Part shown: positions 22,970 to 64,000 of the stretch, piece by piece
How the letters are laid out: each line of letters opens with the position of its first letter
How positions within the stretch are numbered: position 1 is the stretch's first letter
Source: Dehalococcoidia bacterium
GTDB taxonomy: Bacteria; Chloroflexota; Dehalococcoidia; Lucifugimonadales; G963668185
DNA length: 64,000 bases
Assembly (NCBI GenBank): GCA_965261935.1
Contig: OZ253485.1
Span: 472,388-536,387 of the forward strand
Direction: 5' to 3'
The notes under the pieces: model-generated
What the model was told of the DNA's origin: nothing
What the model saw: only the letters and a program-made list of their open reading frames with translations
Database searches by the model: none
Made by a program: the position numbers and the translations under genes

Positions 22970-22989
22970 TGTGGTACAGTATGTGGTAC
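22970..22989 (+). promoter_or_regulatory. Paired integrase arm-type sites
   Basis: TGTGGTAC direct repeats at 22970 and 22982 (12-bp period) just upstream of the integrase. Confidence 0.65.
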
Positions 22990-23021
22990 ACATATTGGCA
23001 CACGACAGGAAGGGGGACGCC

Positions 23022-31244: not shown

Positions 31245-31245
31245 C

Positions 31246-35336: not shown

Positions 35337-35487
35337 CGGGGAACAAGAAGAAGTAGGCAAGTATGAACGGGCGAGGCGGGCGCTCCGACCGGGACCGGGA
35401 CCTCCCGCGGTATGAGCGATACAGGAATGGGATCTCTGCGCCCGCATAATAGAAGGCCTACGGCTGTGCTCTGGGAGCGCTTGCGCC

Positions 35488-36952: not shown

Positions 36953-37091
36953 CCTCTTCGACACCGCAGCTGCAAAGAGCGTGGCCGCTCTTTCGCATCG
37001 ACTGGCAGGCCGAACACACCGGCAATGGAAGAGCCTCCGCCCTGTGGCATACGATTGCTCCGCCCTTGTATCTTGGTAACGGTTCCCAATA

Positions 37092-38780: not shown

Positions 38781-39035
38781 AATAGTGACTTCACAGACGT
38801 GGAGTGAGGTGTGGCAGACCGATCCGCCCCTGGTCGTCAAAGACCGTTGTCAAGCAAGGGTCGCCGCACCATCCCCAAGCAGAGCCCGAACGGTTGCCCG
38901 GGCCGATTGAGCCCGCATCTCGCAAGGAAGGGCCAATGCTCTACACAGGAGTGGTCTGCTGTCGGCGTTCAGCATGAGTGTCACGCTGCGGTGGGCGTCA
39001 GCGGAGGGTCTTAGCGGGATCGAGCGGGGAGCGGT

Positions 39036-43595: not shown

Positions 43596-43949
43596 AGAAG
43601 TGCGGCGTATGATTGTGCCAGTGAATGATTCCCCTGGCTGAGGCCAAATTCGGGAACAGGCTCGTCTCCCTCGAGGTTGCAGTGGTGGTAGTCAAAGCGG
43701 GCATCGTCAGCTAGGGAACAGGGCCACCTCAAGGTTTCCTCAGTAGTCCGAAGGTCGACCACGGTTCGCACGCCACAAATAAGACAGCGTCTCTCGCGCC
43801 TCATCCGTGACACTGGATAGAAGATCGGACCGGATGAAACGGCCCCTCTTGGTCTTCCGACAGTCCGTGGCGGGCAAACCTCCCAAGTCGCGGACGTTGA
43901 AGGCGCTAGGGAGAACAATGCGACGTTCAGGCAGGGAAGAGAGTTTCAT
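43596..43949 (-). pseudogene. Tyrosine/serine protein phosphatase (Y_phosphatase3-like) N-terminal fragment
   Basis: LPSAFNVRDLGG...FIRSD, then a frameshift to GVRTVVDLRTTEE; cut off by IS copy 2 before the HCxxGKDR loop. Confidence 0.75.
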
Positions 43950-48100: not shown

Positions 48101-51100
48101 GTCTGCCGACAGGCGTGATCGCTGCGACTCCGAGCCAGACAACGGTCCAAATCATCGACGACGACACGGCAAGAGTGACGGTTGATCCGACGATGCTGAG
48201 AATAGCCGAGCACGCCACATCCTCGTACACCATGGTTCTGGACAGCCAGCCGACACACGAGGTGACGGTGACGATCAACTCTCCCACCGGGACGGAGATC
48301 GTAACGGTTCAACCTCGCCTCACATTCACGACGGATAACTGGGACAAAGAGCAGAGTGTGACGGTGATAGCGAACCCTGACAGAGATACTTCCGATGACT
48401 ACGGCGTGATCACACACACTGTCGATTCACTTGACGATGATTACGACAGAGTCACGCCGAGCGGTGTCGCCGTCACGGTCATTGATGACGACGTGCCGAG
48501 TGTGGCCGTCAGCTTCGAGGAGGCAAGTTACACCGTTGCAGAGGGCAGAACTACCACCATCAAGATCACGCTGAGCGCTGACCCAGAGCGGACCGTCACA
48601 ATACCGATCATCAAGACCGAGCACGGCGGTGCCACCAGCGCCGACTACACAGGCGTGCCCGCCAGCGTGACTTTCGATGCAGGGGAGGCCGAAGAAGCCT
48701 TCACGTTCTCCGCTACCCAGGATGCATTCGACGAAGACGGCGGAGGCGTCAGACTTTCGTTTGGCTCGAGTCTGCCGACAGGCGTGATCGCTGCGACTCC
48801 GAGCCAGACAACGGTCCAAATCATCGACGACGACACGGCAAGAGTGACGGTTGATCCGACGATGCTGAGAATAGCCGAGCACGCCACATCCTCGTACACC
48901 ATGGTCCTAGACAGCCAGCCAGCACACGAAGTGATAGTGACGATCAACTCACCCGTCGGGACGGAGATCGTAACGGTTCAACCTCGCCTCACCTTCACAA
49001 CTGAAGACTGGGACGAAATGCAGAGTGTGACGGTGATAGCGAACCCAGACAGAGATACCTCCGATGACTACGGCGTGATCACACACACAGTCGATTCACT
49101 TGACGACGACTACGACAGAGTCACGCCGAGCGGTGTCGCCGTCACGGTCATTGATGACGACGTGCCGGATGTGGCCGTCAGCTTCGAAGAGGGGACCTAC
49201 TCCGTCGATGAGGGTGGCACCACCACCATCAAGATCACGCTCAGCGCCGACCCAGATCGGACCGTCACTGTACCGATCACCAAGACCGACCAGGGTGGTG
49301 CCACCAGCGCCGACTACACAGGCGTGCCTGCCAGCGTCACATTTGACTCAGGGGAAACACAACACAGGTTCACCTTCACCGCAGTCCAGGACTCAGTTGA
49401 TGACGATGGAGAGTCGGTGGCGTTGAATTTCGGGATACTTCCCGGGGCCATTTCCAAGGGGATGAACAGCGAGGCAACGGTAACCATATCCGACGACGAT
49501 GTGCCAGGAGTCACCGTCAGCTTCGAGCAGCGGACCTACACCGTACAGGAGGGCAGTACCACCACGATCAAGGTGATCCTCAGCGCCGACCCCGAGCGTA
49601 TCGCCATCATACCGATCAGCAGGACCGACCAAGGCGGGGCTACCAGCGCTGATTACTCAGGTGTGCCCGCCCGCGTAACCTTCGATGCAGGCCACACCGA
49701 GCGTAGCTTCACCTTTACGGCAGCGCAGGATCTTGTGAACGACGATGGAGAGTCGGTGAAGTTGACCTTCGGGACGCTGCCCAGCCAGGTGACGGTAGGC
49801 CCTACTGATGAGGCGACGGTCACGATATCCGACGATGATGTGCCAAGCGTAACTGTTAGCTTCGAGCAGGCGACCTACGTCGTGGCCGAGGGCGGGACTA
49901 CCACCATCAAGATCACGCTCAGCGCAGACTCAGAGCGGACTGTGACAATACCGATCACTAAGACCGAGCACGGCGGTGCCACCAGCGCCGACTACACAGG
50001 CGTGCCCGCCAGCGTGACTTTCGATGCAGGGGAGGCCGAAGAAGCCTTCACGTTCTCCGCTACCCAGGATGCATTCGACGAAGACGGCGGAGGCGTCAGA
50101 CTTTCGTTTGGCTCGAGTCTGCCGACAGGCGTGATCGCTGCGACTCCGAGCCAGACAACGGTCCAAATCATCGACGACGACACGGCAAGAGTGACGGTTG
50201 ATCCGACGATGCTGAGAATAGCCGAGCACGCCACATCCTCGTACACCATGGTCCTAGACAGCCAGCCAGCACACGAAGTGATAGTGACGATCAACTCACC
50301 CGTCGGGACGGAGATCGTAACGGTTCAACCTCGCCTCACCTTCACAACTGAAGACTGGGACGAAATGCAGAGTGTGACGGTGATAGCGAACCCAGACAGA
50401 GATACCTCCGATGACTACGGCGTGATCACACACACAGTCGATTCACTTGACGACGACTACGACAGAGTCACGCCGAGCGGTGTCGCCGTCACGGTCATTG
50501 ATGACGACGTGCCGGATGTGGCCGTCAGCTTCGAAGAGGGGACCTACTCCGTCGATGAGGGTGGCACCACCACCATCAAGATCACGCTCAGCGCCGACCC
50601 AGATCGGACCGTCACTGTACCGATCACCGCAACCGACCAGGGTGGAGCCACCAGCGCCGACTACTCGGACGTGCCCGGCAGCGTGACCTTCCAAGCAGGT
50701 GACATGGAGAAGAGCTTCACCTTCACCGCAATCCAAGACTCAATCGATGACGATGGAGAGTCGGTGAGGCTGACCTTCGGGGGGCTGCCCAGCCAGGTGA
50801 CATCAGGCCCTATAGATGAGGCAACGGTAACGATATCCGACGACGATGTGCCCGGAGTCACCGTAAACTTCGAGCAGGCGACCTACGTAGTGGCAGAGGG
50901 CGGCACTACCACCATTGTGATCACGCTGAGCACTGACCCAGAGCGGACCGTCACGATACCGATCACCAAGACCGATCAGGGCGGTGCCACAAGTGCTGAC
51001 TACACAAGTGTGCCCGCCAGCCTGACTTTCGATTCAGGCCACACCGAGCACAGTTTCATCTTCACCGCAGTCCAAGACCCAGTCGATGACGACGGAGAGT

Positions 51101-54100
51101 CGGTGAAGTTGACCTTCGGGGCGCTGCCCAGCCAGGTAACATCAGGCCCGACCGATGAGGCAATGGTAACGATATCCGACGACGATGTGCCCGAAGTCAC
51201 CGTCAGCTTCGGTCAGGCAGCCTACGTCGTGTCCGAAGGCAGCACTACCACCGTCAAGATTACCTTGAGCGCCGACCCAGAGCGGACCGTCACGATACCG
51301 ATCACCAAGACCGATCAGGGCGGTGCCACAAGTGCTGACTACTCAGGAGTGCCTGGCAGCATCACATTTAACTCAGGGGAAACACAACATAGCTTCACCT
51401 TTACGGCAGCCCAGGACTCAGCGGATGACGATGGAGAGTCGGTGGCGTTGGCCTTCGGGGAGTTGCCCGAGGCCATTTCCGAGGGGATGAACAGCGAGGC
51501 AACGGTAACGATGTCCGACGACGATGTACCGGAGGTCACTATCAGCTTCGGTCAGTCAGCCTACTTCGTGGCCGAGGGCAGCACTTCTACCGTTAAGATC
51601 ACCCTCAGCGCCGACCCTGAGCGGGCCGTCCACATACCGATCACTAAGACCGAGCAGGGCGGAGCCACCAGCGCCGACTTCATAGGCGTGCCTGCCAGCG
51701 TGACCTTCGATGCGGGGGAGACCGAAGAAACCTTCACGTTCTCCGCCACAGATGACGCGATGGACGATGACGGCGAAGGCGTCAGGCTTTCGATTGGCTC
51801 GAGTCTGCCCACAGGCGTTACCGCTGCGACACCGACCCAAACGACGGTACATATCATCGACGAAGACACGGCGGGAGTGACGGTTGATCCGACGATGCTG
51901 AGAATAGCCGAGCACGCCACATCCTCGTACACCATGGTCTTGGACAGCCAGCCGACACACGAGGTGACGGTGACGATCAACTCGCCCGCCGGCACTGAGA
52001 TCTTGACGCTTCGACCTCGCCTCACATTCACGACGGATAACTGGGACATAGAGCAGAGTGTGACGGTGATAGCGAACCCAGACAGAGACACGACTGATGA
52101 CAACGGGGTCATCACACACACAGTCGATACTTTGGATGATGATTACGACAGAGTCACGCCCAGCAGTGTCGCCGTCACGGTCATTGATGACGACGTGCCA
52201 GATGTGGCCGTCAGCTTCCAAGAGGGGACCTACTCCGTCGACGAGGGCACCACCACCACCATCAAGATCACGCTGAGCGCCGACCCAGATCGGACCGTCA
52301 CTATACCGATCACCGCAACCGACCAGGGTGGAGCCACAAGTGCCGACTACACAGGCGTGCCCGCCAGCGTGACCTTCGATTCGGGTGAGACCGAAGAGGC
52401 CTTCACCTTCACCGCAATCCAGGACTCAGTTGATGACGATGGAGAGTCGGTGGCGTTGAATTTCGGGACACTTCCCGAGGCCATTTCCGAGGGGATGAAC
52501 AGCGTGGCAACGGTAACGATATCCGACGACGATGTGCCAATCGTCACCGTCCGCTTCGAGCAGCGGACCTACACCGTGGAGGAGGGCAACACCACCACGA
52601 TCAAGGTGATCCTCAGCGAAGACCCAGAGCGGACCGTCACTATACCGATCACGGCAACCGACCTTGGTGGAGCCACCAGCGCCGACTACTCGGGTTTGCC
52701 CGCCAGCATAACCATCGATGCAGGCCACACCGAGCATAGCTTCAGCTTTACGGCAACGCAGGATTCTGTGAACGACGATGGAGAGTCGGTGAAGCTGAAC
52801 TTCGGGGCGCTGCCCAGCCAGGTGACATCAGGCCCTACAGATGAAACGACGGTGACGATATCCGACGACGATGTGCCGGTCGTCACCGTAAACTTCGAGC
52901 AGGCAACCTACGCAGTAGCAGAGGGCGGCACTACCACCATTGTGATCACCCTCAGCCCCGACCCTGAGCGGACTGTCAACATACCTATCACCGCAACTGA
53001 GCAAGGCAGTGCCACCAACGCCGACTACTCAGGCGTGCCCGCCAGCGTGACGTTCGACTCAGGGGAAACACAGCGTAGCTTCACCTTCACCGCAATCCAA
53101 GACTCAATGGATGACGATGGAGAGTCGGTGGCGTTGAACTTCGGGGCACTTCCCGAGGCCATTTCCGAGGGGATGAACAGCGAGGCAACGGTCACGATAG
53201 CCGACGACGATGTACCGGAGGTCACCGTCAGCTTCGAGTATGGGACCTACGTTGTGGCCGAGGGCAGCACTACTACCGTCAAGATCACCCTCAGCCCCGA
53301 CCCTGAGCGGACTGTCAACATACCTATCACCGCAACTGAGCAAGGCAGTGCCACCAACGCCGACTACTCAGGCGTGCCCGCCAGCGTGACGTTCGACTCA
53401 GGGGAAACACAGCGTAGCTTCACCTTCACCGCAATCCAAGACTCAGTGGATGACGATGGAGAGTCGGTGGCGTTGAACTTCGGGGCACTTCCCGAGGCCA
53501 TTTCCGAGGGGATGAACAGCGAGGCAACGGTCACGATAGCCGACGACGATGTACCGGAGGTCACCGTCAGCTTCGAGTATGGGACCTACGTTGTGGCCGA
53601 GGGCAGCACTACTACCGTCAAGATCACGCTCAGCGTCGACCCGGAGCGGACCGTCACCATACCGATCACTGCGACCGAGCAAGGCGGTGCCACCAGCGCC
53701 GATTACTCAGGCGTTCCCACCAGCGTGACCTTCCAAGCAGGTGACATGGAGAATAGCTTCACCTTCACCGCGGTCCAGGACTCAGTCGATGACGACAGAG
53801 AGATCGTGAGGCTGACCTTCGGGGAGCTACCCAGCCAGGTGACATCAGGCCCTACAGATGAGGCGACGGTCACGATATCCGACGACGATGTGCCGAGCGT
53901 CACCGTAAACTTCGAGCAGGCGACCTACGCAGTGGCAGAGGGCAGCACTACCACCATCAAGATCTCGCTGAGCGCCGACCCAGAGCGGACTGTCACTATA
54001 CCGATCACCAAGACCGAGCACGGCGGTGCGGTAAGCGCCGACTACTCAGGTGTGCCTGGCAGCGTCACATTTAACTCAGGGGAAACACAACACAGTTTCA

Positions 54101-57100
54101 CCTTCACCGCAGTCCAGGACTCAGTTGATGACGATGGAGAGTCGGTGAGACTGACATTCGGGACGCTGCCCAGCCAGGTGACAACAGGCCCAACCGATGA
54201 GGCGACAGTGACGATAGCCGACGACGACGTGCCAGGAGTCACCGTCAGCTTCGAGAATGGGGCCTACGCAGTGGCAGAGGGCGGCACTACCACGATCAAG
54301 GTGATCCTCAGCGCAGACCCAGAGCGGACCGTCACTATACCGATTACGGCAACCGACCTTGGTGGAGCCACCAGCGCCGACTACTCGGGTGTGCCCACAA
54401 GCGTGACCTTCGATGCAGGGGAGACAGAAGAAACCTTCACGTTCTCCGCCACAAATGACGCGATGGACGATGATGGCGAACGCGTCAGGCTATCGTTTGG
54501 CTCGAGTCCGCCCACAGGCGTTACCACTGCGATACCGACCCAAACGACGGTACATATCATCGACGACGACACGGCGGGAGTGACGGTTAACCCCACGATG
54601 CTGGACATAGCCGAACACGCCACATCCTCGTACACCATGGTCCTGGACAGCCAGCCGACACACGAGGTGACGGTGACGATCAACTCGCCCGCCGGCACGG
54701 AGATCTTGACGCTTCAACCTCGCCTCACATTCACGACGGATAACTGGGACATAGAGCAGAGTGTGACGGTGATAGCGAACCCAGACAGAGACACGGCCGA
54801 TGACAACGGCGTGATCACACACTCTTTCGATTCACTTGATGATGATTACGACAGAGTCACGCCGAGCGGTGTTGTTGTAACGGTCATTGATGACGACGTG
54901 CCGGATGTGGCCGTCAGCTTCGAAGAAGGGACCTACTCCGTCGCCGAGGGTGGCACCACCACCATCAAGATCACGCTGAGCGCAGATCCAGAGCGGACCG
55001 TCACTATACCGATCACCGAAACCGAGCAGGGCGGGGCCACCAGCGCTGATTACTCGGATGTGCCCTCCAGCCTGACTTTCCATCCAGGTGAGACAGAGAA
55101 GAGCTTCACCTTTGTGGCAGTCCAGGACTCAGTTGATGATGACAACGAGTTGGTGAAGCTAACGTTTGGTGAGTTGCCTAGCCAAGTGACGTTAGGCCCA
55201 ACCGATGAGGCAGTGGTAGCGATATCCGACGACGATGTGCCAAGCGTCACCCTTAACTTCGAGCAGGCGACCTATGCAGTGGCAGAGGGCGGCACTACCA
55301 CGATCAAGGTGATCCTCAGCGCAGACCCAGAGCGGACCGTCAACATACCGATCACCGCAACCGAGCAGGGCGGAGCCACCAGCGCCGAATACTCGGGCGT
55401 GCCCGCCGATGTGACCTTCCAAGCAGGTGACACTGAGAAAGACTTCATCTTCACCGCGGTCCAGGACTCAGTTGATGACGATGGAGAGTCGGTGAAGCTG
55501 ACCTTCGGGACGCTGCCCAGCCAGGTGACGTCAGGCCCAACTGATGAAGCAACGGTAACGATAGCCGACGACGATGTGCCCGGAGTCACTGTCAGCTTCG
55601 AGCAGGCGACCTACGCAGTGGCAGAGGGCGGCACTACCACCATTGTGATCACGCTGAGCGCCAACCCAGAGAGGGCCATCAACATACCGGTTACCGCAAC
55701 CAACCAGGGTGGAGCCACCAGCGCTGACTACTCCGGCGTGCCCGCCGAAGTGACCTTCCAAGCAGGTGACACGGAGAAGGGCTTCACCTTCACCGCGGTC
55801 CAGGACTCAGTTGATGACGATGAAGAGTCGGTGAAGCTGGCCTTCGGGACGCTGCCCAGCCATGTGACATCAGGCCCGACTGATGAGGCAACGGTGACGA
55901 TATCCGACGACGATGTGCCTGGAGTCACCGTCAGCTTCGATCATTCAGCCTACGTCGTGTCAGAGGGGAGCACTACCACCGTCAAGATTACCTTGAGCGC
56001 CGATCCTGAGCGGACGGTCAACATACCGATCACCGCAACCGACCAGGGCGGGGCCACCAGCGCCGACTACTCAGGCGTGCCCGCCAGCGTAACCTTGAAT
56101 TCAGGCGACACCGTGCAAGAGTTCACTTTCATGGCTGTCCGGGACAATTTGGATGACGACGGAGAGTTGGTGAGGCTAACGTTTGGTGAACTGCCCAGCC
56201 AGGTGACGTCAGGCCCGACTGATGAGGCAACGGTAACGATCGCAGATGACGACGTGCCGAGGGTTGCCGTCAGCTTTGAACATGCGGCCTACTCCGTCGA
56301 CGAGGGAAATACCACCACGATCAAGGTGATACTCAGCGCCGACCCTGAGCGGACCATCACAATACCGATCACTGCGACCGAGCAAGGCGGTGGCACCAGT
56401 GCTGACTACTCAGGTGTTCCCACAAGCATGACGTTCGATTCGGGGGAGACCGAGCACAGTTTCATCTTCACCGCAATCCAAGATTCAGTCGATGACGACG
56501 GAGAGTCAGTGAAGCTGACTTTCGGGGAGCTGCCTAGCCAGGTGACATCAGGCCCGACTGATGAGGCAACGGTAACGATCGCAGATTACGACGTGCCGAG
56601 GGTTGCCGTCAGCTTTGAGCATGCGGCCTACTCCGTCGACGAGGGAAATACCACCACGATCAAGGTGATACTCAGCGCCGACCCAGAGCGGACGATCACA
56701 ATACCGATCACTGCGACCGAGCAAGGCGGTGCCACCAGCGCTGACTACTCAGGTGTTCCCACAAGTGTGCCCTTCGATGCTGGGGAGACTGAAGAAGCCT
56801 TCGCCTTCGTGGCGGTTCAGGACAATGTGAATGACGACGGAGAGTCGGTGAAGCTGACCTTAGGGACGCTGCCCAGCTATGTGACGTCAGTCCCGGCCGA
56901 TGAGGCAACGGTGACGATATCCGACGACGATATCCCTATGGTGTCTATCAGCTTCGATCAAACAACCTACGTCGTGTCCGAGAACAGTACTACCACCGTG
57001 AAGATTACCTTGAGCGCCGACCCAGAGCGGACTGTGACCGTACCGATCATCAGTACCGAGCAGGGCGGAGCTAGCAGCGCCGACTACTCGGGTGTTCCCG

Positions 57101-59595
57101 CCAGTGTGACTTTCGATATTGGGGAGACCGAAGAAGCCTTCACGTTCTTCGCCACACATGACGCGATGGACGATGACGGCGAACGCATCAGGCTATCGTT
57201 TGGCTTCAGTCTACCCACAGGCGTGACCGCCGCGATTCCGACCCAGACTACGGTCCAAATCACCGACGATGACACGGCAGGGGTGACGGTTAACCCCACG
57301 ATGCTGGAAATAGCCGAACATGCCACATCCTCTTACACGGTGGTCCTGGACAGTCAGCCGACACACGAGGTGACGGTGACGATCAACTCGCCCGCCGGCA
57401 CTGAGATCTTGACGATTCAACCTCGCCTCACATTCACGACTGAAAACTGGGACATAGAGCAGAGTGTGACGGTGATAGCGAACCCAGACAGAGATACTTC
57501 CGATGACAATGGCTTAATCACGCACACAGTCGATTCCTTGGACGACGACTATGGGGGAGTCACGCCTAGCGGGGTCGCCGTCACGGTCATCGACGACGAC
57601 GTGCCTGGAGTCACCGTCAGCTTCGTGCAGGAGACATACACCGTAGCAGAGGGCGGTACAACCTCCATCAAAGTCACGCTGAACACTGACCCTGAGCGTA
57701 TCGTCACCATACCGATCACCAGGACTGAGCAAGGCGGGGCAACCAACACCGACTACACAGGCGTGCCTGCCAGCGTGATCTTCAATTCAGGGGAGTTCGA
57801 GCATAGCTTCGCCTTCGAGGCAACCCAGGACTCAGTCGATGACGACGGAGAGTCGGTAAGGCTGACCTTCGGGATGCTGCCCAGCCAGGTGACTGCCGGC
57901 CCAACCGATGAGGCGACGGTAACGATATTCGATGACGATGTGCCGAGTGTGACCGTCAGCTTCGTGCAGGAGACATACACCGTAGCAGAGGGCGGTACAA
58001 CCTCCATCAAAGTCACGCTGAACACTGACCCTGAGCGTATCGTCACCATACCGATCACCAGGACCGAGCAAGGCGGAGCCACCAGCGCCGACTACTCAGG
58101 CGTTCCCACCAACGTGACCTTCGACTCAGGGGAGATTGAGCTTAACTTCACCTTCTTCGCAATCCAAGACTCCTCGGACGACGACAACGAGTCAGTCAGT
58201 CTCTCTTTCGGGGCGCTGCCCAGCCAGGTGATGTCAGGCCCAACTGATGTGGCGACGGTCGCGATCGCAGACGACGATGTACCGGAGGTCACCGTCAGCT
58301 TCGGCCAGGCAGCCTACGCCGTGGCAGAAGGAAGCACTACCACCGTAAAGGTCATCTTGGACAGGGACCCAAAACGCGCAGTGAGCCTCCTCATAGAAAA
58401 GGTCGAAGAAGGCGGGGCCACCAGTGCCGACTACACAGGCGTTCCCACAAGCGTGACCTTCGACTCAGGTGAGACGGTGCGTAGCTTCACCTTCTCGGCG
58501 GCTCAAGATGCAATCGTCGACGACGGCGAGAAGGTGCTCCTGTCTTTCAGCTCGACGATGCCCGCGGGCATTACAGCGTTGGCTCCGACACAGACGACCA
58601 TCCTGATTGCCGACGATGACTCCGCCGGAGTGACAGTGGATCCTACCGTGCTGACCATAGCGGAGCGCGCTACATCCTCTTACTCCGTCGCCTTGGAAAG
58701 CGAACCAACACATGATGTGACGGTCACGATTAACTCGCCTAACGAAACAGCAATCGCAACGGACAAATCTCTTCTCAATTTCACTGCCAGCAACTGGCAC
58801 ATGATTCAGTCCGTGGTCGTGTTGGCTAATGCGGATGAAGACACACACGATTACCACGGATCGATCACCCACACTATCGAATCTTTGGATGATGAGTATG
58901 TTGGAGCCACTTCTAGTGATGTCATTGTCAGAGTTATCGACGATGATGTGCCGCAAGTGACGATTAGCTTCGGGAAGGCCACGTACCACGTTGACGAGGG
59001 TGGCGATGTCTCGGTTGAGGTCATTCTGGACAGTCACCCAGGACGTAACCTCACCATCCCTGTCGAGAAGACCGATCAAGGCGGCATAACCGGCGCCGAC
59101 TACTTCGGCGTGCCATCCAGTGTGAGCTTCAACCCGGGGGACACTGTGAAGTCCTTCACCGTCTACACCACCCAGGACTCTCTGAATGACGACAACGAGC
59201 TAGTCAAGTTCTCATTCGGCGTTCTTCCCGATGGTGTTTCTGTAGGAACCTTAAAGGAGTCGGCGGTCTCCATCACAGATGACGACGTGCCCAAAATAAC
59301 CGTAACCTTTGAGAGGGCGAATTACTTCGTGTCCGAAGGACAATCAACTACGATCAAAGTATTTCTGAACAGGGACCCAGAACGCACCCTAATCATTCCC
59401 ATTGAAATTACCAAGCGAGGTAGGGCAACAAATGCTGATTACTTCGGGGTGCCCAATAGCTTAACCTTCGGCTATGGAGAAACCGAAGAGTCCTTCACGT
59501 TTTCCGCCACCCCAGACTCCGTGGACGATGACAGCGAGTCTGTCGAGCTGTCATTCGGCGACCTCTCCAACGCGGTCATGCTTGGGAAGCAATAG
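45196..59595 (+). CDS. Giant Calx-beta repeat surface protein/adhesin (4799 aa, about 40 domains)
   Basis: Units of about 113 aa (VSFxxxxYxVxEG...ATSADY...QDSVDDDGESV.LTFG...VTIxDDD) with a 339-nt period, interspersed with a second unit type of about 112 aa. Hydrophobic N-terminal segment. Confidence 0.92.
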   Translation: MTIGSLAGTDVPPNTCGLTWPALLLLLSASVAIILSAALPSFHVESEKSNVDLSLATDSSDQATVSEGPVGFKASVSQIIGRLPDGDATSWHDDLDKAHVTASLRVVFEHGSELLARRYDDVRGSEHDEAKPVKTTDECRSTRDGYAFAPGGDALEGGREDKAGAVASAKGARVNTGNEVKPCFGKPAPTEVNPKKNGEVTEVVVSKPSPLVSSLSVIGFAPLAAVEVEHVRRPNTAKNGTRYTARNVEQTCPTHSDNIASHRYVGGPECSFSFSAAMLSRSGGQLAGLSLGRRPDESPEGVLEQPKVSNSNGDVPMVTVSFESGTYTVAEGNTTTIRVILDEDPEHSVTIALDRSPQRGISLANYSGVPSSITLNSGDTERSFTFSATKEAMGDDGEGVRISIGSTLPAGVTATAPIQTTVHIADDDTAGVTFDPETVTVTEGTSSSYAVVLDSQPTHEVTVTINSPAGTEILTLQPRLTFTTDNWDIEQTVTVIANPDRDSVNDTGSITHTIDSLDDDYDRIIPGAVEVTVIDDDVPAVVVSFAQSSYTVSEGGTTTVKVVMDADPERTVNIRIFGTLLEGATSTDYSGVPAEVTFNAGETEQSFIFSATQDEIDDDGEGVRLNLGTLPFKVSLGGTDETVVSITDDDDSAVTVSFDMASYSVAEGDDVMIGVTLSAALELAVTIPIVVALQDGATSIDYSGVPANVMFASGETERSFTFTATQDTEEDDGESVKLTFGELSEAVSEGLNSEATVTIADDDVPDVAVSFEQAFYAVEEGGTTTIRIILSSDLHPTVNVPITVTEHGGAASADYSGVPASVTFDSGETEHRFTITAVQDSLDDDGESVKLTFGELPNQVTSGPTDEAMVTVIDDDVPSVAVSFEEASYTVAEGRTTTIKITLSADPERTVTIPIIKTEQGGATSADYTGVPASVTFDAEETEEAFTFSATQDAFDEDGGGVRLSFGSSLPTGVIAATPSQTTVQIIDDDTARVTVDPTMLRIAEHATSSYTMVLDSQPTHEVTVTINSPTGTEIVTVQPRLTFTTDNWDKEQSVTVIANPDRDTSDDYGVITHTVDSLDDDYDRVTPSGVAVTVIDDDVPSVAVSFEEASYTVAEGRTTTIKITLSADPERTVTIPIIKTEHGGATSADYTGVPASVTFDAGEAEEAFTFSATQDAFDEDGGGVRLSFGSSLPTGVIAATPSQTTVQIIDDDTARVTVDPTMLRIAEHATSSYTMVLDSQPAHEVIVTINSPVGTEIVTVQPRLTFTTEDWDEMQSVTVIANPDRDTSDDYGVITHTVDSLDDDYDRVTPSGVAVTVIDDDVPDVAVSFEEGTYSVDEGGTTTIKITLSADPDRTVTVPITKTDQGGATSADYTGVPASVTFDSGETQHRFTFTAVQDSVDDDGESVALNFGILPGAISKGMNSEATVTISDDDVPGVTVSFEQRTYTVQEGSTTTIKVILSADPERIAIIPISRTDQGGATSADYSGVPARVTFDAGHTERSFTFTAAQDLVNDDGESVKLTFGTLPSQVTVGPTDEATVTISDDDVPSVTVSFEQATYVVAEGGTTTIKITLSADSERTVTIPITKTEHGGATSADYTGVPASVTFDAGEAEEAFTFSATQDAFDEDGGGVRLSFGSSLPTGVIAATPSQTTVQIIDDDTARVTVDPTMLRIAEHATSSYTMVLDSQPAHEVIVTINSPVGTEIVTVQPRLTFTTEDWDEMQSVTVIANPDRDTSDDYGVITHTVDSLDDDYDRVTPSGVAVTVIDDDVPDVAVSFEEGTYSVDEGGTTTIKITLSADPDRTVTVPITATDQGGATSADYSDVPGSVTFQAGDMEKSFTFTAIQDSIDDDGESVRLTFGGLPSQVTSGPIDEATVTISDDDVPGVTVNFEQATYVVAEGGTTTIVITLSTDPERTVTIPITKTDQGGATSADYTSVPASLTFDSGHTEHSFIFTAVQDPVDDDGESVKLTFGALPSQVTSGPTDEAMVTISDDDVPEVTVSFGQAAYVVSEGSTTTVKITLSADPERTVTIPITKTDQGGATSADYSGVPGSITFNSGETQHSFTFTAAQDSADDDGESVALAFGELPEAISEGMNSEATVTMSDDDVPEVTISFGQSAYFVAEGSTSTVKITLSADPERAVHIPITKTEQGGATSADFIGVPASVTFDAGETEETFTFSATDDAMDDDGEGVRLSIGSSLPTGVTAATPTQTTVHIIDEDTAGVTVDPTMLRIAEHATSSYTMVLDSQPTHEVTVTINSPAGTEILTLRPRLTFTTDNWDIEQSVTVIANPDRDTTDDNGVITHTVDTLDDDYDRVTPSSVAVTVIDDDVPDVAVSFQEGTYSVDEGTTTTIKITLSADPDRTVTIPITATDQGGATSADYTGVPASVTFDSGETEEAFTFTAIQDSVDDDGESVALNFGTLPEAISEGMNSVATVTISDDDVPIVTVRFEQRTYTVEEGNTTTIKVILSEDPERTVTIPITATDLGGATSADYSGLPASITIDAGHTEHSFSFTATQDSVNDDGESVKLNFGALPSQVTSGPTDETTVTISDDDVPVVTVNFEQATYAVAEGGTTTIVITLSPDPERTVNIPITATEQGSATNADYSGVPASVTFDSGETQRSFTFTAIQDSMDDDGESVALNFGALPEAISEGMNSEATVTIADDDVPEVTVSFEYGTYVVAEGSTTTVKITLSPDPERTVNIPITATEQGSATNADYSGVPASVTFDSGETQRSFTFTAIQDSVDDDGESVALNFGALPEAISEGMNSEATVTIADDDVPEVTVSFEYGTYVVAEGSTTTVKITLSVDPERTVTIPITATEQGGATSADYSGVPTSVTFQAGDMENSFTFTAVQDSVDDDREIVRLTFGELPSQVTSGPTDEATVTISDDDVPSVTVNFEQATYAVAEGSTTTIKISLSADPERTVTIPITKTEHGGAVSADYSGVPGSVTFNSGETQHSFTFTAVQDSVDDDGESVRLTFGTLPSQVTTGPTDEATVTIADDDVPGVTVSFENGAYAVAEGGTTTIKVILSADPERTVTIPITATDLGGATSADYSGVPTSVTFDAGETEETFTFSATNDAMDDDGERVRLSFGSSPPTGVTTAIPTQTTVHIIDDDTAGVTVNPTMLDIAEHATSSYTMVLDSQPTHEVTVTINSPAGTEILTLQPRLTFTTDNWDIEQSVTVIANPDRDTADDNGVITHSFDSLDDDYDRVTPSGVVVTVIDDDVPDVAVSFEEGTYSVAEGGTTTIKITLSADPERTVTIPITETEQGGATSADYSDVPSSLTFHPGETEKSFTFVAVQDSVDDDNELVKLTFGELPSQVTLGPTDEAVVAISDDDVPSVTLNFEQATYAVAEGGTTTIKVILSADPERTVNIPITATEQGGATSAEYSGVPADVTFQAGDTEKDFIFTAVQDSVDDDGESVKLTFGTLPSQVTSGPTDEATVTIADDDVPGVTVSFEQATYAVAEGGTTTIVITLSANPERAINIPVTATNQGGATSADYSGVPAEVTFQAGDTEKGFTFTAVQDSVDDDEESVKLAFGTLPSHVTSGPTDEATVTISDDDVPGVTVSFDHSAYVVSEGSTTTVKITLSADPERTVNIPITATDQGGATSADYSGVPASVTLNSGDTVQEFTFMAVRDNLDDDGELVRLTFGELPSQVTSGPTDEATVTIADDDVPRVAVSFEHAAYSVDEGNTTTIKVILSADPERTITIPITATEQGGGTSADYSGVPTSMTFDSGETEHSFIFTAIQDSVDDDGESVKLTFGELPSQVTSGPTDEATVTIADYDVPRVAVSFEHAAYSVDEGNTTTIKVILSADPERTITIPITATEQGGATSADYSGVPTSVPFDAGETEEAFAFVAVQDNVNDDGESVKLTLGTLPSYVTSVPADEATVTISDDDIPMVSISFDQTTYVVSENSTTTVKITLSADPERTVTVPIISTEQGGASSADYSGVPASVTFDIGETEEAFTFFATHDAMDDDGERIRLSFGFSLPTGVTAAIPTQTTVQITDDDTAGVTVNPTMLEIAEHATSSYTVVLDSQPTHEVTVTINSPAGTEILTIQPRLTFTTENWDIEQSVTVIANPDRDTSDDNGLITHTVDSLDDDYGGVTPSGVAVTVIDDDVPGVTVSFVQETYTVAEGGTTSIKVTLNTDPERIVTIPITRTEQGGATNTDYTGVPASVIFNSGEFEHSFAFEATQDSVDDDGESVRLTFGMLPSQVTAGPTDEATVTIFDDDVPSVTVSFVQETYTVAEGGTTSIKVTLNTDPERIVTIPITRTEQGGATSADYSGVPTNVTFDSGEIELNFTFFAIQDSSDDDNESVSLSFGALPSQVMSGPTDVATVAIADDDVPEVTVSFGQAAYAVAEGSTTTVKVILDRDPKRAVSLLIEKVEEGGATSADYTGVPTSVTFDSGETVRSFTFSAAQDAIVDDGEKVLLSFSSTMPAGITALAPTQTTILIADDDSAGVTVDPTVLTIAERATSSYSVALESEPTHDVTVTINSPNETAIATDKSLLNFTASNWHMIQSVVVLANADEDTHDYHGSITHTIESLDDEYVGATSSDVIVRVIDDDVPQVTISFGKATYHVDEGGDVSVEVILDSHPGRNLTIPVEKTDQGGITGADYFGVPSSVSFNPGDTVKSFTVYTTQDSLNDDNELVKFSFGVLPDGVSVGTLKESAVSITDDDVPKITVTFERANYFVSEGQSTTIKVFLNRDPERTLIIPIEITKRGRATNADYFGVPNSLTFGYGETEESFTFSATPDSVDDDSESVELSFGDLSNAVMLGKQ

Positions 59596-60002
59596 CAACG
59601 AAACGCTGCGTTATTCGTGGGTGGTGGATCTGTAAACTTGCTGAAGCTGGATCAGCCGATTGGTCGTAGTTCGAGTCCATGCCGGTGGGCCGGAGCGTAC
59701 CGTATTGCGAACTTTTCGGTGGGAGGTCCTGCTGTAAGGAGTCCAGTTTGGTGGTCCACACCCACTGGCGGAGCCATTCAACGCGCTGAGGACGTTCAGG
59801 AATCGATCTTGCGCAGTATGTAGAAGGAGCTGAATCTATGGCAACCCATAGAGCGAGTCAGGTAGCCGACGAGAACGGCGTTCTTCCCCGACGTGGTGAC
59901 CATCAATCGGTAGAGGGCTATTCGGCGGATGACCGTGATGTCTTAAAGTTCCTCTCCGCGTTGCCATTGCCGAAGCAGACCCCAAGAGGGCTAAAGGCCC
60001 AT

Positions 60003-60058
60003 CCACATCTCGAAGATGGTTCTGCCTACCGTCCACTCTGGCCCATGTGGCAGGACCA
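60003..60058 (-). other. Second copy of the att-like junction motif
   Basis: Minus strand GGGCCAGAGTGGACGGTAGGCAGAACCATCTTCGAGATGTGG matches 30217-30247 at 28/31 positions. Confidence 0.5.
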
Positions 60059-60094
60059 ATACCGGTCGCTTGCGCGCACGGGTGATCGCCACGT

Positions 60095-60157
60095 TCAAGA
60101 GACGGCAAGGACAATGCCCAGCAAGGCAAGCCATCTTGTCGTTCCTGCACTCGGCCT
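60095..60157 (-). pseudogene. Remnant 5' end of a third LRR lipoprotein gene
   Basis: Same upstream spacer and signal-peptide DNA as the two intact genes; the start codon is altered to AGG, with TGA after 20 codons. Confidence 0.75.
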
Positions 60158-60248
60158 TATCGTGACCTCCTATCTTTGCTTCGCGCAGAGCGTCCGGGGA
60201 AGAAGGCGCGCCATGACGCCATTTGCCGCCTGCTGAGGCGCCGGGGCC

Positions 60249-62279
60249 TCAGCAGGACGGCAGGTCGCCAAGGTTAGAAGAATAAGATCCTCTCAACTGG
60301 TCTTCCAGGCTGCGTGGCACGCACCCGCTCAACTCGTTCCCGCCGAGGTTCAGATGTGTCAGGCGGGAGAGGCTGCCCAGCTCCGGCGGTATCCCGCTCA
60401 AGGCGTTGGCGCTGAGGTCCAGCCATCCCAGGTTGGAGAGGCTACCCAGCTCCGCCGGTATCTCCCCGCTCAAGGCGTTGGCGCTGAGGTTCAGCCATGC
60501 CAGGTTGGAGAGGCTGCCCAGCTCCGCCGGTATCTCCCCGCTCAAGGCGTTGGCGCTGAGGTTCAGCCATGCCAGGTTGGAGAGGCTGCCCAGCTCCGCC
60601 GGTATCTCCCCGCTCAAGGCGTTGGCGCTGAGGTTCAGCCATCCCAGGTTGGAGAGGCTGCCCAACTCCGCCGGTATCTCCCCGCTCAACTGATTGTCGC
60701 TGAGGTTCAGCCGCCAACTCAGGTTGGAGAGGCTGCCCAACTCCGGCGGTATCTCCCCGCTCAACTGGTTGTCTTGGAGGTGCAGTTCTGTCAGGTTGGA
60801 GAGGTTGCCCAGCTCCGCCGGTATCTCCCCGCTCAAGTCGTTGGCGCTGAGGTTCAGCTGTGGCAGGTTGGCGAGGCTGCCCAACTCCGCCGGTATCTCC
60901 CCGCTCAACTGATTGTCGCTGAGGTTCAGCCGCCAACTCAGGTTGGAGAGGCTGCCCAACTCCGGCGGTATCTCCCCGCTCAACTGGTTGTCTTGGAGGT
61001 GCAGTTCTGTCAGGTTGGAGAGGTTGCCCAGCTCCGCCGGTATCTCCCCGCTCAAGTCGTTGGCGCTGAGGTTCAGCTGTGGCAGGTTGGCGAGGCTGCC
61101 CAACTCCGCCGGTATCTCCCCGCTCAACTGATTGTCGCTGAGGTTCAGCCGCCAACTCAGGTTGGCGAGGCTGCCCAACTCCGGCGGTATCTCCCCGCTC
61201 AACTGGTTCCCGCCGAGGGACAGCCGTATCAGGTTGGCGAGGCTGCCCAACTCCGGCGGTATCTCCCCGCTCAACTGGTTCCCGCCGAGGGACAGCCCTA
61301 TCAGGTTGGCGAGGCTGCCCAGCTCCGGCGGTATCTCCCCGCTCAACTGGTTCCCGCCGAGGGACAGCCCTGTCAGGTTGGCGAGGCTGCCCAGCTCCGC
61401 CGGTATCTCCCCGCTCAACTGGTTCCAGCCGAGGGACAGCGATTCCAGGTTGGAGAGGCTGCCCAGCTCCGGCGGCAGCTCTCCGCTCAACTCATTGCTG
61501 CTGAGGGACAGCGTTTTCAGGTTGGAAAGGCTGCCCAACTCCGGCGGCAGCTCCCCGCTCAACTCGTTGTTGTTGAGGCGCAGCCCTTTCAGGTTGGCGA
61601 GGCTGCCCAGCTCCGGCGGTATCTCCCCGCTCAACTCGTTGTCGCTGAGGTCCAGCTCTGTCAGGTTGGAGAGGTTGCCCAGCTCCGGCGGCAGCTCCCC
61701 GCTCAAGTCGTTTTGGCTGAGGTCCAGCTCTGTCAGGTTGGAGAGGTTGCCCAGCTCCGGCGGCAGCTCCCCGCTCAAATCGTTGTGGTTGAGGTTCAGC
61801 AGTATCAGGTTGGCGAGGCTGCCCAGCTCCGGCGGTATCTCCCCGCTCAACTCGTTCCAGTCGAGGTCCAGCTCTGTAACGCGCCCATTGTCGTCAGTTT
61901 CGACGCGGGGCCATTCGCCCAGGGGCGCGTCACTCAGCCAGTTTTTATTGTGCTCCCAGTTCTCACCGTCCGTTGCGTTGTAGAGGGCAACCAGCGCCTC
62001 CCGGTCCGTTGCCGCCGAGGTCCGCCCAATGGTGAGCAGCGGCGCTTTGGTAGCCGTCGGTCGCGGCGCAGAGGTGGCCGTGGGCGCGTCTCCCGGCATG
62101 GGGGTGGAAGCTGCCGCTTCCGTCGCGGGCGTGGACGCGGCCTCCGTCCGGGGCGTCACGGTCCGCTCTCCGTCGGCGTCCGGCGAATCGCCGCCGCAGG
62201 CCATGAGGACTACCGGCAGCGCCAGGGCAAGGACAATGCCCAGCAAAGTAAGCCGTCTCGTCGTTCCTGTACTCGTCAT
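60249..62279 (-). CDS. Leucine-rich repeat lipoprotein (plant/RLK-type LRR, 22 repeats)
   Basis: Lipobox LMAC, PTA linker, N-cap DREALVALYNATDGENW, LxxLxLxxNxLSGEIPxELGSLxN repeats and C-cap SGCVPRS...GDLPSC. Confidence 0.92.
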   Translation of the reverse strand: MTSTGTTRRLTLLGIVLALALPVVLMACGGDSPDADGERTVTPRTEAASTPATEAAASTPMPGDAPTATSAPRPTATKAPLLTIGRTSAATDREALVALYNATDGENWEHNKNWLSDAPLGEWPRVETDDNGRVTELDLDWNELSGEIPPELGSLANLILLNLNHNDLSGELPPELGNLSNLTELDLSQNDLSGELPPELGNLSNLTELDLSDNELSGEIPPELGSLANLKGLRLNNNELSGELPPELGSLSNLKTLSLSSNELSGELPPELGSLSNLESLSLGWNQLSGEIPAELGSLANLTGLSLGGNQLSGEIPPELGSLANLIGLSLGGNQLSGEIPPELGSLANLIRLSLGGNQLSGEIPPELGSLANLSWRLNLSDNQLSGEIPAELGSLANLPQLNLSANDLSGEIPAELGNLSNLTELHLQDNQLSGEIPPELGSLSNLSWRLNLSDNQLSGEIPAELGSLANLPQLNLSANDLSGEIPAELGNLSNLTELHLQDNQLSGEIPPELGSLSNLSWRLNLSDNQLSGEIPAELGSLSNLGWLNLSANALSGEIPAELGSLSNLAWLNLSANALSGEIPAELGSLSNLAWLNLSANALSGEIPAELGSLSNLGWLDLSANALSGIPPELGSLSRLTHLNLGGNELSGCVPRSLEDQLRGSYSSNLGDLPSC

Positions 62280-62370
62280 TATCGTGACCTCCTATCTTTG
62301 CTTCGCGCGGAGCGTCCGGGGAAGAAGGCGCGCCCCTGGCGCCGTTTCCGCCAGCTGAGGGCGCGTGGCT

Positions 62371-63747
62371 TCAGCAGGACGGCAGGTCGCCAAGGTCAGA
62401 AGAATAAGATCCTCTAAACCGGGCTTCCATGCTGCGTGGCACGCACCCGCTCAAGTCGTTTTGGCTGAGGTACAGCTCTTTCAGGTTGGCGAGGCTGCCC
62501 AGCTCCGGCGGTATCTCCCCGCTCAAGTCGTTTTGGCTGAGGTACAGCTTTTGCAGGTTGGCGAGGCTGCCCAGCTCCGGCGGTATCTCCCCGCTCAACT
62601 CGTTGCCGCTGAGGTACAGCTCTTTCAGGTTGGCGAGGCTGCCCAGCTCCGGCGGTATCTCCCCGCTCAACTCGTTGCCGCTGAGGTACAGCTCTTTCAG
62701 GTTGGCGAGGCTGCCCAGCTCCGGCGGTATCTCCCCGCTCAACTGGTTCCCGCCGAGGGACAGCGTGTACAGGTTGGCGAGGCTGCCCAGCCAGGGCGGT
62801 ATCTCCCCGCTCAACTCGTTGCCAAAGAGGTACAGCTTCCTCAGGCTAGAGAGGCTGCCCAGCTCCGGCGGTATCTCCCCACTCAACTGATTGCTGCGGA
62901 GGGTCAGCCTTGTCAGGTTGGCGAGGCTGCCCAGCTCCGGCGGTATCTCCCCACTCAACTGATTGCTGCCGAGATCCAGCTCTGTCAGGCTGGAGAGGCT
63001 GCCCAGCTCCGGCGGTATCTCCCCACTCAACTCGTTGCGGCTGAGGCCCAGCCGTTCCAGGTTGGAGAGGCTGCCCAGCTCCGGCGGTATCTCCCCGCTC
63101 AAATCGTTGACGCCGAGGGACAGCCGTATCAGGTTGGCGAAGCTGCCCAGCTCCGGCGGTATCTCCCCGCTCAACTCGTTGCCGAAGAGGTCCAGCTCTT
63201 GCAGGTTGGCGAGGCTGCCCAGCTCCGGCGGTATCTCCCCGCTCAAATCGTTGTCGTAGAGGTACAGCCGTGTCAGGTTGGCGAGGCTGCCCAGCTCCGG
63301 CGGTATCTCCCCGCTCAAATCGCTCCAGTCGAGGTCCAGCTCTGTGACTCGACCGTTGACGTCAGTGTCGACGCCGTACCATTCGCCCAGGGGCGCGTCA
63401 CTCAGCCAGTTTGTATTGTGTTTCCAGTTCTCACCGTCCGTTGCGTTGTAGAGGGCAACCAGGGCTTCCCGGTCCGTTGCCGCCGAGGTCCGCCCAATGG
63501 TGAGCAGCGGCGCTTTGGTAGCCGTCGGCCGCGGCGCAGCGGTGGCCGTGGGCGCGTCCCCCGGCATTGTGGTGGAAGCTGCCGCTTCCGTCGCGGGCGT
63601 GGATGCGGCCTCCGTCCGGGGCGTCGTAGCCCGCTCTCCGTCGGCGTCCGGCGCATCGCCGCCGCAGGCTATGAGGACTGCCGACAGCGCCAGGGCAAGG
63701 ACGATGCCCAGCAAGGTAAGCCATCTCGTCGTTCCTGAACTCGTCAT
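62371..63747 (-). CDS. Leucine-rich repeat lipoprotein paralog (13 repeats)
   Basis: Same architecture; near-identical N-terminal region and C-cap, different repeat set. Confidence 0.92.
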   Translation of the reverse strand: MTSSGTTRWLTLLGIVLALALSAVLIACGGDAPDADGERATTPRTEAASTPATEAAASTTMPGDAPTATAAPRPTATKAPLLTIGRTSAATDREALVALYNATDGENWKHNTNWLSDAPLGEWYGVDTDVNGRVTELDLDWSDLSGEIPPELGSLANLTRLYLYDNDLSGEIPPELGSLANLQELDLFGNELSGEIPPELGSFANLIRLSLGVNDLSGEIPPELGSLSNLERLGLSRNELSGEIPPELGSLSSLTELDLGSNQLSGEIPPELGSLANLTRLTLRSNQLSGEIPPELGSLSSLRKLYLFGNELSGEIPPWLGSLANLYTLSLGGNQLSGEIPPELGSLANLKELYLSGNELSGEIPPELGSLANLKELYLSGNELSGEIPPELGSLANLQKLYLSQNDLSGEIPPELGSLANLKELYLSQNDLSGCVPRSMEARFRGSYSSDLGDLPSC

Positions 63748-64000
63748 TATCGTGACCTCCTATCTTTGCTTCGCGCAGAGCGTCCGGGGAAGAAGGAGCG
63801 CCTTCTCCTGTAAGACGGGCTGGAGCCGGTGAGAGAACTCTAAGCTTAGGGTTGTAACGGACAAGAGGCATAGTTGCCCTATCCGTTATCCTGCACACTG
63901 AACTCCCCTATCCAGCGCAGGTTTTCAACGCCTGGGCCTGCCGCTCGGTAAAACCTCTGGTCGGCGGTCCACAGCTCGCAATCGAGACTCTCAGCCAGCG

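Follow-up and report, generated by a model that had tools for sequence, protein, structure and literature searches.

Tandem genes for predicted leucine-rich repeat lipoproteins in a Dehalococcoidia bacterium combine a near-invariant DNA framework with a diversified, putatively ligand-binding face

Repeat genes whose DNA is almost invariant, except at the few codons specifying one face of the protein, raise the question of how that face is diversified: by a programmed system producing many variants within a population, or by the recombination and selection that reshape repeat families during evolution. The question is posed by an array of leucine-rich repeat (LRR) genes in a 64-kb stretch of DNA from a Dehalococcoidia bacterium (OZ253485.1, positions 472,388-536,387), called the window in what follows, to which all absences reported below apply unless another scope is given. 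A preliminary description had proposed a diversifying surface-recognition family, with the variable lymphocyte receptors (VLRs) of lampreys as the analogy for its mechanism. The explanation we favor, with a probability of roughly 0.7, is that the array belongs to a family of LRR "eukaryote-like proteins" which evolves by unequal recombination or gene conversion combined with diversifying selection, in a manner comparable to that of plant receptor clusters and of the repeats of fungal NOD-like receptors (NLRs). The first proposal thus keeps its constant framework, its hypervariable face and the shuffling of its repeats, and its VLR analogy finds no support as a mechanism.

The array is composed, as already described, of two intact genes and the remnant of a third, all on the minus strand. 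Gene B (62371-63747), the first of the array, encodes an LRR lipoprotein of 458 amino acids, and gene A (60249-62279) one of 676 amino acids; both were delimited from the listing of open reading frames (ORFs), repeat parsing and Pfam, with the structural model in addition for gene B. The two proteins have the same layout, with a signal peptide and lipobox, a Pro-, Thr- and Ala-rich stalk some 60 residues long, an N-cap devoid of cysteines (DREALVALYNATDGENW…NWLSDAPLGEWYGV…GRVTELDLD), the LRRs and a C-cap with two cysteines (LSGCVPRS...LGDLPSC). In gene B, these elements correspond to Cys28 for the lipobox, residues 29 to about 88 for the stalk, about 89 to 143 for the N-cap, and Cys435 and Cys458 for the C-cap. 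Lipidation is a prediction: the lipobox was called with a sequence rule, [LVI][ASTVI][GAS]C, which is matched by …LALALSAVLIAC28GG in B and …LALALPVVLMAC28GG in A. The LRRs of gene B cover residues 144-431 (nucleotides 62455-63318) as 12 units of 24 amino acids, and those of gene A residues 144-649 (nucleotides 60333-61850) as 21 units, of which 17 have 24 amino acids, three have 25 and one has 23. The figures of 22 and 13 repeats given previously are correct as counts of the LSG motif that include the C-cap, and become 21 and 12 when full repeats are counted; each gene additionally carries a half-repeat in its N-cap.

The shared parts of these genes were also recovered, the N-terminal 143 amino acids of A and B being about 90% identical and their C-caps alike. 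The spacer and ribosome-binding site (RBS) between B and A (62280-62370, minus strand, 91 nt) are near-identical to the spacer preceding the remnant, so that the announced common spacer of about 90 bp holds for gene A and the remnant; gene B has only the last 55 nt or so before its ATG in common with them. Its 5' leader (63748-63803, minus strand) ends in […]CCTTCTTCCCCGGACGCTCTGCGCGAAGCAAAGATAGGAGGTCACGATA, with an AGGAGG RBS located 8 nt 5' of the ATG, and no sigma-70-like promoter was found in it. The remnant (60104-60248, minus strand) is a dead 5' module which comprises the spacer, the RBS and 18 signal-peptide codons and stops at 60104; alignment of the three copies reveals AGG (60157-60155) in place of the ATG start codon. 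The same truncated stub also closes the arrays of three related loci, L002 (12798-12902), L004 and L005 (11705-11818), and is therefore old and conserved.

The 33 parsed units have the consensus LSGEIPPELGSLANLxxLxLxxNx, which is that of the plant-specific (PS) 24-residue LRR (LxxLxLxxNxLSGxIPxxLGxLxx), and the Pfam families LRR_1, LRR_4, LRR_8 and LRR_14 exceed their cut-offs. The N-cap gives no match to Pfam LRRNT_2 at E<=0.01; its resemblance to the plant motif is one seen by eye only, the cysteines being absent. In a phmmer search against the PDB, the plant receptor FLS2 came first with an E-value of 3e-174, followed by GSO1 and BRI1-like proteins. The AlphaFold model is a solenoid, with a confidence score (pLDDT) above 85 across most of the repeat region and below 50 in the stalk, and its best Foldseek matches (RGFR1, PEPR1, FLS2 and MIK2) are the ectodomains of plant LRR receptors. 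All NCBIfam matches fall far below the curated cut-offs, the best being XopAC with 221 bits for a cut-off of 450; internalin A reaches 106 of 1600 bits, and the other sub-threshold similarities (Xop effectors, internalins, LIC_11051) are lower than XopAC relative to their own cut-offs. PADLOC has no match for the array. Genes A and B are two paralogues within a large LRR family of Dehalococcoidia, with predicted export by the Sec/lipoprotein route; most likely they are sponge-associated and fall into the class of "eukaryote-like repeat proteins".

The contrast between constant and variable codons was quantified by aligning the repeats in register, each unit beginning at LSG, and calculating the entropy per codon position. 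The first 45 nt of the unit (TTGAGCGGGGAGATACCGCCGGAGCTGGGCAGCCTCGCCAACCTG), hereafter the framework, are 93-96% identical among repeats, synonymous sites included, and the last 27 nt of the 72-nt unit are 68-69% identical; whole repeats, compared in pairs, share on average 72-76% of their amino acids and 84-86% of their nucleotides. Entropy is near zero at the first, second and third nucleotides (nt1, nt2 and nt3) of the framework codons, and attains 1.0-1.9 bits at nt1/nt2 of codons 16, 17, 19, 21, 22 and 24. At nt3 it amounts to 0.24-0.48 bits for codons 16, 17, 19 and 21 and to 1.2-1.3 bits for codons 22 and 24. The Leu codons 18 (CTG) and 20 (CTC), which are flanked by hypervariable codons, are invariant in 25 unique repeats. 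Invariant framework DNA and a hypervariable face were thus found as first described, together with all eight of the variable motifs quoted at that time. Codon bias was considered as a cause of the framework invariance and discarded, since the frame relies on non-preferred codons such as TTG (9% of its codon family), GGG (15%) and ATA (19%), the exact series of framework codons having a probability of 1e-7 under the codon usage of the window.

The variable codons are exactly the x positions of LxxLxLxxNx and lie within the beta-strand segment of the model. By the established geometry of LRRs and the strand assignment of the model, their residues would form the concave ligand-binding face. Ordinary LRR proteins also vary at the exposed x positions in the repeat's other half; here these are fixed (E4, P/A7, E8, S/N11, A/S13, N14). 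Per-position substitution counts, which the preliminary description had suggested along with the entropies, showed replacements exceeding synonymous changes exactly at the x positions. By the method of Nei and Gojobori (NG86), applied to short, near-saturated and recombining segments and without a recombination-aware model, the framework in the window has a dS of 0.094 and a dN of 0.050, and the six variable codons have a dN of 0.92 and a dS of 0.29, that is an omega of about 3 and a dN some 10 times the framework dS. As far as such rough counts can tell, the replacement excess points to positive (diversifying) selection.

The same DNA carries traces of exchange between units. A 30-mer of the framework has 32 matches at <=3 mismatches in the 64 kb, all of them within A and B, and none in shuffled sequence, which places the repeats beyond chance; Tandem Repeats Finder (TRF) describes them as a period of 72 with 41 copies and a score of 1788. 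The TRF output also contains a row of period 219, which corresponds to an exact tandem duplication of three repeats in gene A (60694-61131, minus strand): positions 60694-60912 and 60913-61131 are the same 219 bp with 0 differences. To judge by its sequence, this duplication is a very recent event of unequal recombination or slippage. A variant unit with an extra, 25th residue was noted in gene A at residues 360, 433 and 506 (…NLSWRLNLSDNQ) and in unit 5 of gene 1 of L004 (…NLGWRLDLRANE); recurrent across genes and genomes, it should make the binding strand bulge locally.

These properties are shared by a family which extends well beyond the window. With the N-terminal 167 amino acids as query, more than 1500 proteins were retrieved, those named being proteins from metagenome-assembled genomes (MAGs) of Chloroflexi, and a scan of genomes gave 76 loci, nearly all in MAGs of Dehalococcoidia with a few in Caldilineaceae, Longimicrobiales, Gemmatimonadota and Bryobacterales. 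Tandem arrays of 2-4 family genes, each with 5-17 repeats, are the rule among the scanned loci. About 40-50 genes of Dehalococcoidia MAGs with at least 6-8 units have the same invariant framework and codons variable at nt1/nt2; their 45-nt consensus departs from that of the window at 0-3 positions, and the consensus frame displays no synonymous change across dozens of genes. In large multidomain LRR proteins of other phyla, synonymous sites are saturated and pN/pS at the x positions is about 1. The idea that invariance across genomes is unique to the repeats held only partly: the conserved codons of the N-cap are 75-92% codon-identical across genomes, for 92-100% in the framework. Because the N-cap codons are likewise conserved, the family as a whole is young or exchanged, with the frame conserved somewhat further.

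In 13 pooled pairs of orthologues from different species, the variable codons have a pS of 0.090 and a pN of 0.141 (pN/pS 1.56), the framework a pS of 0.069 and a pN of 0.032, and the N-terminal region a pS of 0.195 and a pN of 0.117, and the gaps in these 13 alignments are whole repeats. As many as 999 of the 1114 collected repeats have distinct 9-residue variable segments. Many members of the family retain common repeat types in different species, as seen at L009 and L051, at L019 and L025, and at L003, L004 and L005.

Comparison with related loci provided the manner in which such arrays change. Upstream of the array, a 252-nt flank in which a vapC PIN gene ends has 96-100% identity with L001, L002, L004 and L005, and downstream a flank of about 417 nt (59684-60103) is 98.3-99.5% identical in the same four loci; the arrays enclosed by these flanks are only 82-88% identical. 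The number of LRR genes is one in L083, two each in the window, L002, L004 and L005, and at least five in L001, the vapC flank being shared by these six loci; four are present in L003, a locus outside this flank comparison. The L001 array contains in addition two lipoproteins with RCC1 repeats which bear the 5' module of the LRR genes. Since one RCC1 protein of L001 starts with the leader, signal peptide and stalk of the LRR genes, this module behaves as a portable export cassette for varied repeat cargos. RCC1-repeat proteins (Pfam RCC1_2) were seen within LRR arrays at 5562-6700 and 8190-9092 of L001 and at 26-1216 of L081.

The closest pairs are the most instructive. L004 and L005 are 96.5% identical over the locus. 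Their genes 1 are 100% identical over 650 nt, after which identity falls suddenly to 79-90%; in the diverged part nearly all x residues differ and the framework has 11 synonymous and 13 non-synonymous changes. This sharp drop and the synonymous changes in the framework indicate a recombination breakpoint and not site-directed mutation. Their genes 2 are mosaics, blocks with 100% identity being mixed with diverged ones and with indels of whole repeats, and the same repeat types are re-ordered, duplicated, replaced or lost in them. L081, whose flanks are 98.6-99.6% identical to those of L001, has a chimeric gene whose 5' part comes from L001 gene 3 and whose 3' part comes, frameshift included, from gene 4, with two other repeats in between, and its last gene is exactly one repeat shorter than in L001. 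As this frameshift (…LSGKYRRSWAASPTWNG) is common to L001 and the L081 chimera, pseudogenes persist and still recombine; frameshifted members were noted at 4538-5471 and 10001-10926 of L001, 1229-2334 of L081 and 10001-11000 of L083. From these comparisons of sequence, the orthologous locus appears to be a recombination hot spot between near-identical flanks. The repeat changes behind 100% identical 5' halves in L004/L005, and the chimera and one-repeat deletion in L081, bear out the proposal that the 72-nt frames serve for repeat shuffling. Because replacements are in excess at the x positions and repeats have been shuffled at these loci, the grounds for refutation named in the preliminary description do not apply, and the idea of a diversifying family survives.

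Together, these data suggest the following scenario. The protein would be anchored by a lipid at Cys28, and its disordered Pro/Thr-rich stalk would space the LRR solenoid off the membrane, leaving the concave beta-sheet face to bind an extracellular ligand, which may be a host matrix or cell-surface molecule or belong to other microbes. The 45-nt frame being almost identical in all of them, the 72-nt units would stay aligned, so that unequal crossing-over of the RecA type, slippage and gene conversion can act on them. Exchange could take place within a gene, between adjacent paralogues or between alleles, and would alter the number and order of repeats, produce chimeric genes and add or remove entire genes. 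Such recombination would also homogenize the framework (concerted evolution), and positive selection would then fix replacements at the six x positions of LxxLxLxxNx. Such a process would make dedicated diversification machinery unnecessary.

Several points weigh against this scenario. Between orthologues, divergence at synonymous sites is about three times slower in the framework than in the N-terminal region of these genes (pS 0.069 versus 0.195), which plain concerted evolution accounts for only loosely; homogenization over hundreds of copies may be the cause, selection at the DNA level being a further possibility. The omega values are rough because they come from NG86 counts on short, near-saturated, recombining segments. 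No donor for the block replaced between L004 and L005 was found among 77 loci, none exceeding the family baseline of 82-86%, and no identical repeat common to A and B was found. Lipidation, surface display, the ligand and the host context are what we infer, as are RecA dependence and selection for binding rather than escape, and the sponge origin of the window, discussed below, is likely on the basis of its relatives. Finally, all variants compared come from different genomes or samples, and a faster, quasi-programmed process keeps a small probability.

Such a process, programmed or of high frequency, would turn the array and its paralogues elsewhere in the genome into a VLR-like or antigenic-variation-like system, the copying of repeats between genes being frequent enough for one population to carry many receptor variants. 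The in-register 45-nt frames, the exact 219-bp duplication and the chimeras and indels between strains with 98.6-99.6% identical flanks are what it would produce; the framework DNA is more conserved across genomes than the N-terminal region, and a 5' module common to all copies and to the RCC1-repeat lipoproteins recalls expression-site architectures. We nevertheless consider it very unlikely. Both genes are complete from RBS and ATG to C-cap, each having a signal peptide of its own; the window holds no incomplete acceptor gene, the 18-codon stub being the only incomplete copy, and no silent LRR cassettes, all framework matches lying in A and B. Neither a reverse transcriptase nor an AID/APOBEC-like or other deaminase was found in the 42 window ORFs scanned against Pfam, no dedicated recombinase lies near the array, and no phase-variation switch (homopolymer tract or invertible promoter) was seen. 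Each variant observed belongs to a separate genome or sample, and the persistence of repeat types across species (L009/L051, L019/L025, L003/L004/L005) indicates an evolutionary rather than a somatic time scale. The lamprey analogy is consequently unsupported as a mechanism, all the variation seen being between genomes or strains. An extension of the favored scenario, in which the 45-nt frame is itself kept as a recombination substrate and dozens of paralogues per genome trade repeats often enough to form a combinatorial receptor repertoire at the level of the population, is quite unlikely; if true, frequent frame-based exchange would constitute a functional analogue of VLRs and antigenic variation running on general recombination alone. 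Selection could also act on escape and not on binding, the family being shaped to dodge recognition, for instance by phages that use it as a receptor, by the host or by competitors. This would equally yield a replacement excess on an exposed face; sponge symbionts are reported to be rich in defence systems and mobile elements (PMC8163846), and the array sits in an IS-rich region opening with a tRNA-linked integrase (IS, insertion sequence). Escape should, however, touch any exposed surface, whereas the variation is limited to the x positions of LxxLxLxxNx, on the canonical ligand-binding strand, and the exposed positions of the other half are fixed; together with the lack of a PADLOC match, this makes escape unlikely.

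The two remaining explanations concern the origin of the variable codons themselves. Their change at nt1/nt2 with nt3 kept (NNC, NNG, NNA) superficially resembles the AAC-to-NNC mutagenesis of diversity-generating retroelements (DGRs), but targeted hypermutation of this or a similar type is hardly credible: the scanned ORFs contain no reverse transcriptase and no template repeat was found, codon 16 retains A at nt3, and in the block replaced between L004 and L005 the synonymous framework changes beyond a sharp breakpoint denote recombination. Adenine targeting was rejected in its own right, the eight framework adenines being kept in 86-100% of repeats and the Asn codon (AAC/AAT) never being diversified. 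A non-adaptive origin, either by relaxed constraint on loop positions of newly amplified repeats or by their mis-assembly, could invoke the frameshifts of several members (the L001 genes at 4538 and 10001, L081 and L083) and the difficulty of assembling repeats. Relaxation, however, predicts an omega tending to 1 and equal change at nt3, and what is observed is an omega above 1 and an nt3 entropy of 0.24-0.48 bits against 1.0-1.9 bits at nt1/nt2; many closed long-read chromosomes, each assembled independently, have the same architecture, and in the window the reading frames of both genes are unbroken for 458 and 676 codons. We regard this origin as highly improbable, and retain recombination coupled to diversifying selection.

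The surroundings of the array have features of their own. Its upstream boundary is the 3' end of the vapC-like PIN toxin gene (63879-64000, minus strand), of which the window contains the last 40 codons, ending in …LAESLDCELWTADQRFYRAAGPGVENLRWIGEFSVQDNG and a stop; the full-length homologue in L001 matches Pfam PIN. A vapBC-like toxin-antitoxin pair stands upstream of the array in L001 (3658-4406) and L083 (9121-9869), and the vapC flank is also found in L002, L004 and L005. The downstream flank is better conserved than the adjoining genes and has small ORFs on either strand, of which one has a good RBS at 59838. It gave no match in Pfam, NCBIfam or PADLOC, and Rfam returned nothing over 59550-60300 with gathering and E-value thresholds. 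Exact-protein matches to A, B and two small ORFs of this flank were not found, and a 28-nt anchor from the flank had no match in the JGI metagenomes. Synteny with L001, L002, L004 and L005 breaks sharply at 59684. An ORF of 4799 amino acids on the plus strand (45196-59595) stops 90 nt before this point; it has 31 Calx-beta domains (Pfam E-value 2e-295), repeats internally with a unit of about 339 bp, shows a strongly positive AT skew, is absent at the matching position in these four loci, and probably encodes a giant adhesin.

Farther away, a tyrosine integrase gene (22971-24176) adjoins a tRNA-Ala (22770-22843), 36 kb from the array, and is followed by two AlpA-like regulators (24158-25369), the region as a whole extending over 22770-26273. 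The tRNA-Ala and integrase are probably the left end of a genomic island, which may reach across the IS-rich region to the array and would carry IS elements, a two-component system, a cadherin-domain protein and the ORF of 4799 amino acids; no att repeat of the 3' end of the tRNA-Ala was found in the window. IS-type genes are located at 28339-29979, 37082-38604, 39034-40826 and 42160-43602 and comprise HTH transposase-like, DDE_Tnp_1_6 and IS21-like IstB plus Mu-type transposase genes; copies 80-94% identical to them adjoin LRR-family loci in L007, L010, L030, L032, L043 and L048. The earlier statement that the window shows neither a dedicated recombinase nor a reverse transcriptase is thus right for the reverse transcriptase in the ORFs scanned, which have no deaminase either, but has to be amended for the integrase and the several IS transposases, none of which adjoins the array. 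Between the IS-type genes, a LuxR-type response regulator stands with a histidine kinase (30543-32466) beside a protein with a cadherin domain (32843-33664) and one with an Ig-like domain (33809-35356), these last two being candidates for further adhesion genes in the putative island.

As to the habitat, the exact 45-mer was found on three JGI metagenome contigs, two of which belong to MKWU01, a metagenome of the sponge Aplysina aerophoba, and relatives of the family occur in MAG lineages typical of sponges. Sponge MAGs have been described as enriched in LRR repeat proteins, for which lateral transfer is also reported (PMC8163846); in SAR202 and Caldilineae that are sponge symbionts, LRR genes were noted (PMC6306507). 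From the MKWU01 matches and these reports, a sponge origin of the window is likely.

The array can be compared with several known systems, among them the LRR proteins of sponge symbionts. These are likewise LRR-only and present in multiple copies in Chloroflexota and other sponge-associated phyla, and the window also has cadherin and Calx-beta proteins. The candidates named most often as mediators of the symbiosis between sponges and microbes are LRR and other eukaryote-like proteins, which have so far mostly been treated as domain counts. The two articles treat such counts, and not lipoprotein export, arrays, an invariant frame, diversifying selection or shuffling (PMC8163846, PMC6306507); the export route of symbiont repeat proteins was called unclear in one of them (PMC8163846). 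In the open-access literature that we searched, diversifying LRR arrays of sponge symbionts are not described. Relative to the papers searched, what appears to be new is therefore the way these proteins are predicted to be exported, the arrangement of their genes in arrays and the regime in which they evolve; the class of proteins was already known. The locus would supply an anatomy for this class, with predicted lipoprotein export and a stalk, a defined hypervariable face and an engine of shuffling and selection. Among other bacteria, the LIC LRR proteins of Leptospira, the internalins of Listeria and XopAC/XopL of Xanthomonas are also surface-exposed or host-directed, with a different repeat subtype.

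The VLRs of lampreys and hagfish have constant caps, 24-residue LRR modules in variable number, diversity on the concave face, a Thr/Pro-rich stalk, a lipid anchor and short shared frames for recombination, a design to which that of A and B is alike. VLRs are, in addition, assembled somatically in each lymphocyte, which takes a germline gene that is incomplete, silent cassettes in banks and AID-like deaminases, and the incomplete gene, cassettes and deaminase were not found in the window. The Vlp and Vsa systems of Mycoplasma likewise place a conserved 5' leader and lipoprotein signal on a repeat region of variable length. If switching proved frequent within populations, the present family would represent a new kind of bacterial receptor diversification.

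In evolutionary terms the likeness is rather with plant and fungal receptors. Plant LRR receptors (FLS2, PGIP, Cf-4/Cf-9, Xa21) have the same plant-specific 24-residue repeat and provide the best matches in sequence and fold. Work by Parniske in 1997 and Wang in 1998 reportedly described their tandem clusters of paralogues, with Ka/Ks above 1 at the exposed x positions and unequal crossing-over that alters the number of repeats. Unlike them, the proteins described here have neither a kinase nor a transmembrane helix, an N-terminal lipid anchor and stalk replacing the C-terminal membrane anchor; their N-cap is Cys-free, their host bacterial, and the identity of their repeat DNA much higher. Near-identical repeats have been reported in fungal NLRs, with concerted evolution, number polymorphism, shuffling within and between paralogues and positive selection at a few binding-surface positions (PMC4986451, PMC1805685). 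The regime is the same, polymorphism of repeat number and shuffling being seen here as well, although the repeats are of other folds (WD40 in HET-E/NWD, ANK and TPR, without LRRs), the fungal proteins are intracellular NOD receptors with effector domains and ours are secreted lipoproteins without a signalling domain, and the fungal threshold for high internal conservation, at least 85% across 100 amino acids or more, lies above the 72-76% amino acid identity of the present repeats. On this comparison, the evolutionary mode of plant resistance clusters and fungal NLRs would also operate in a family of bacterial surface proteins.

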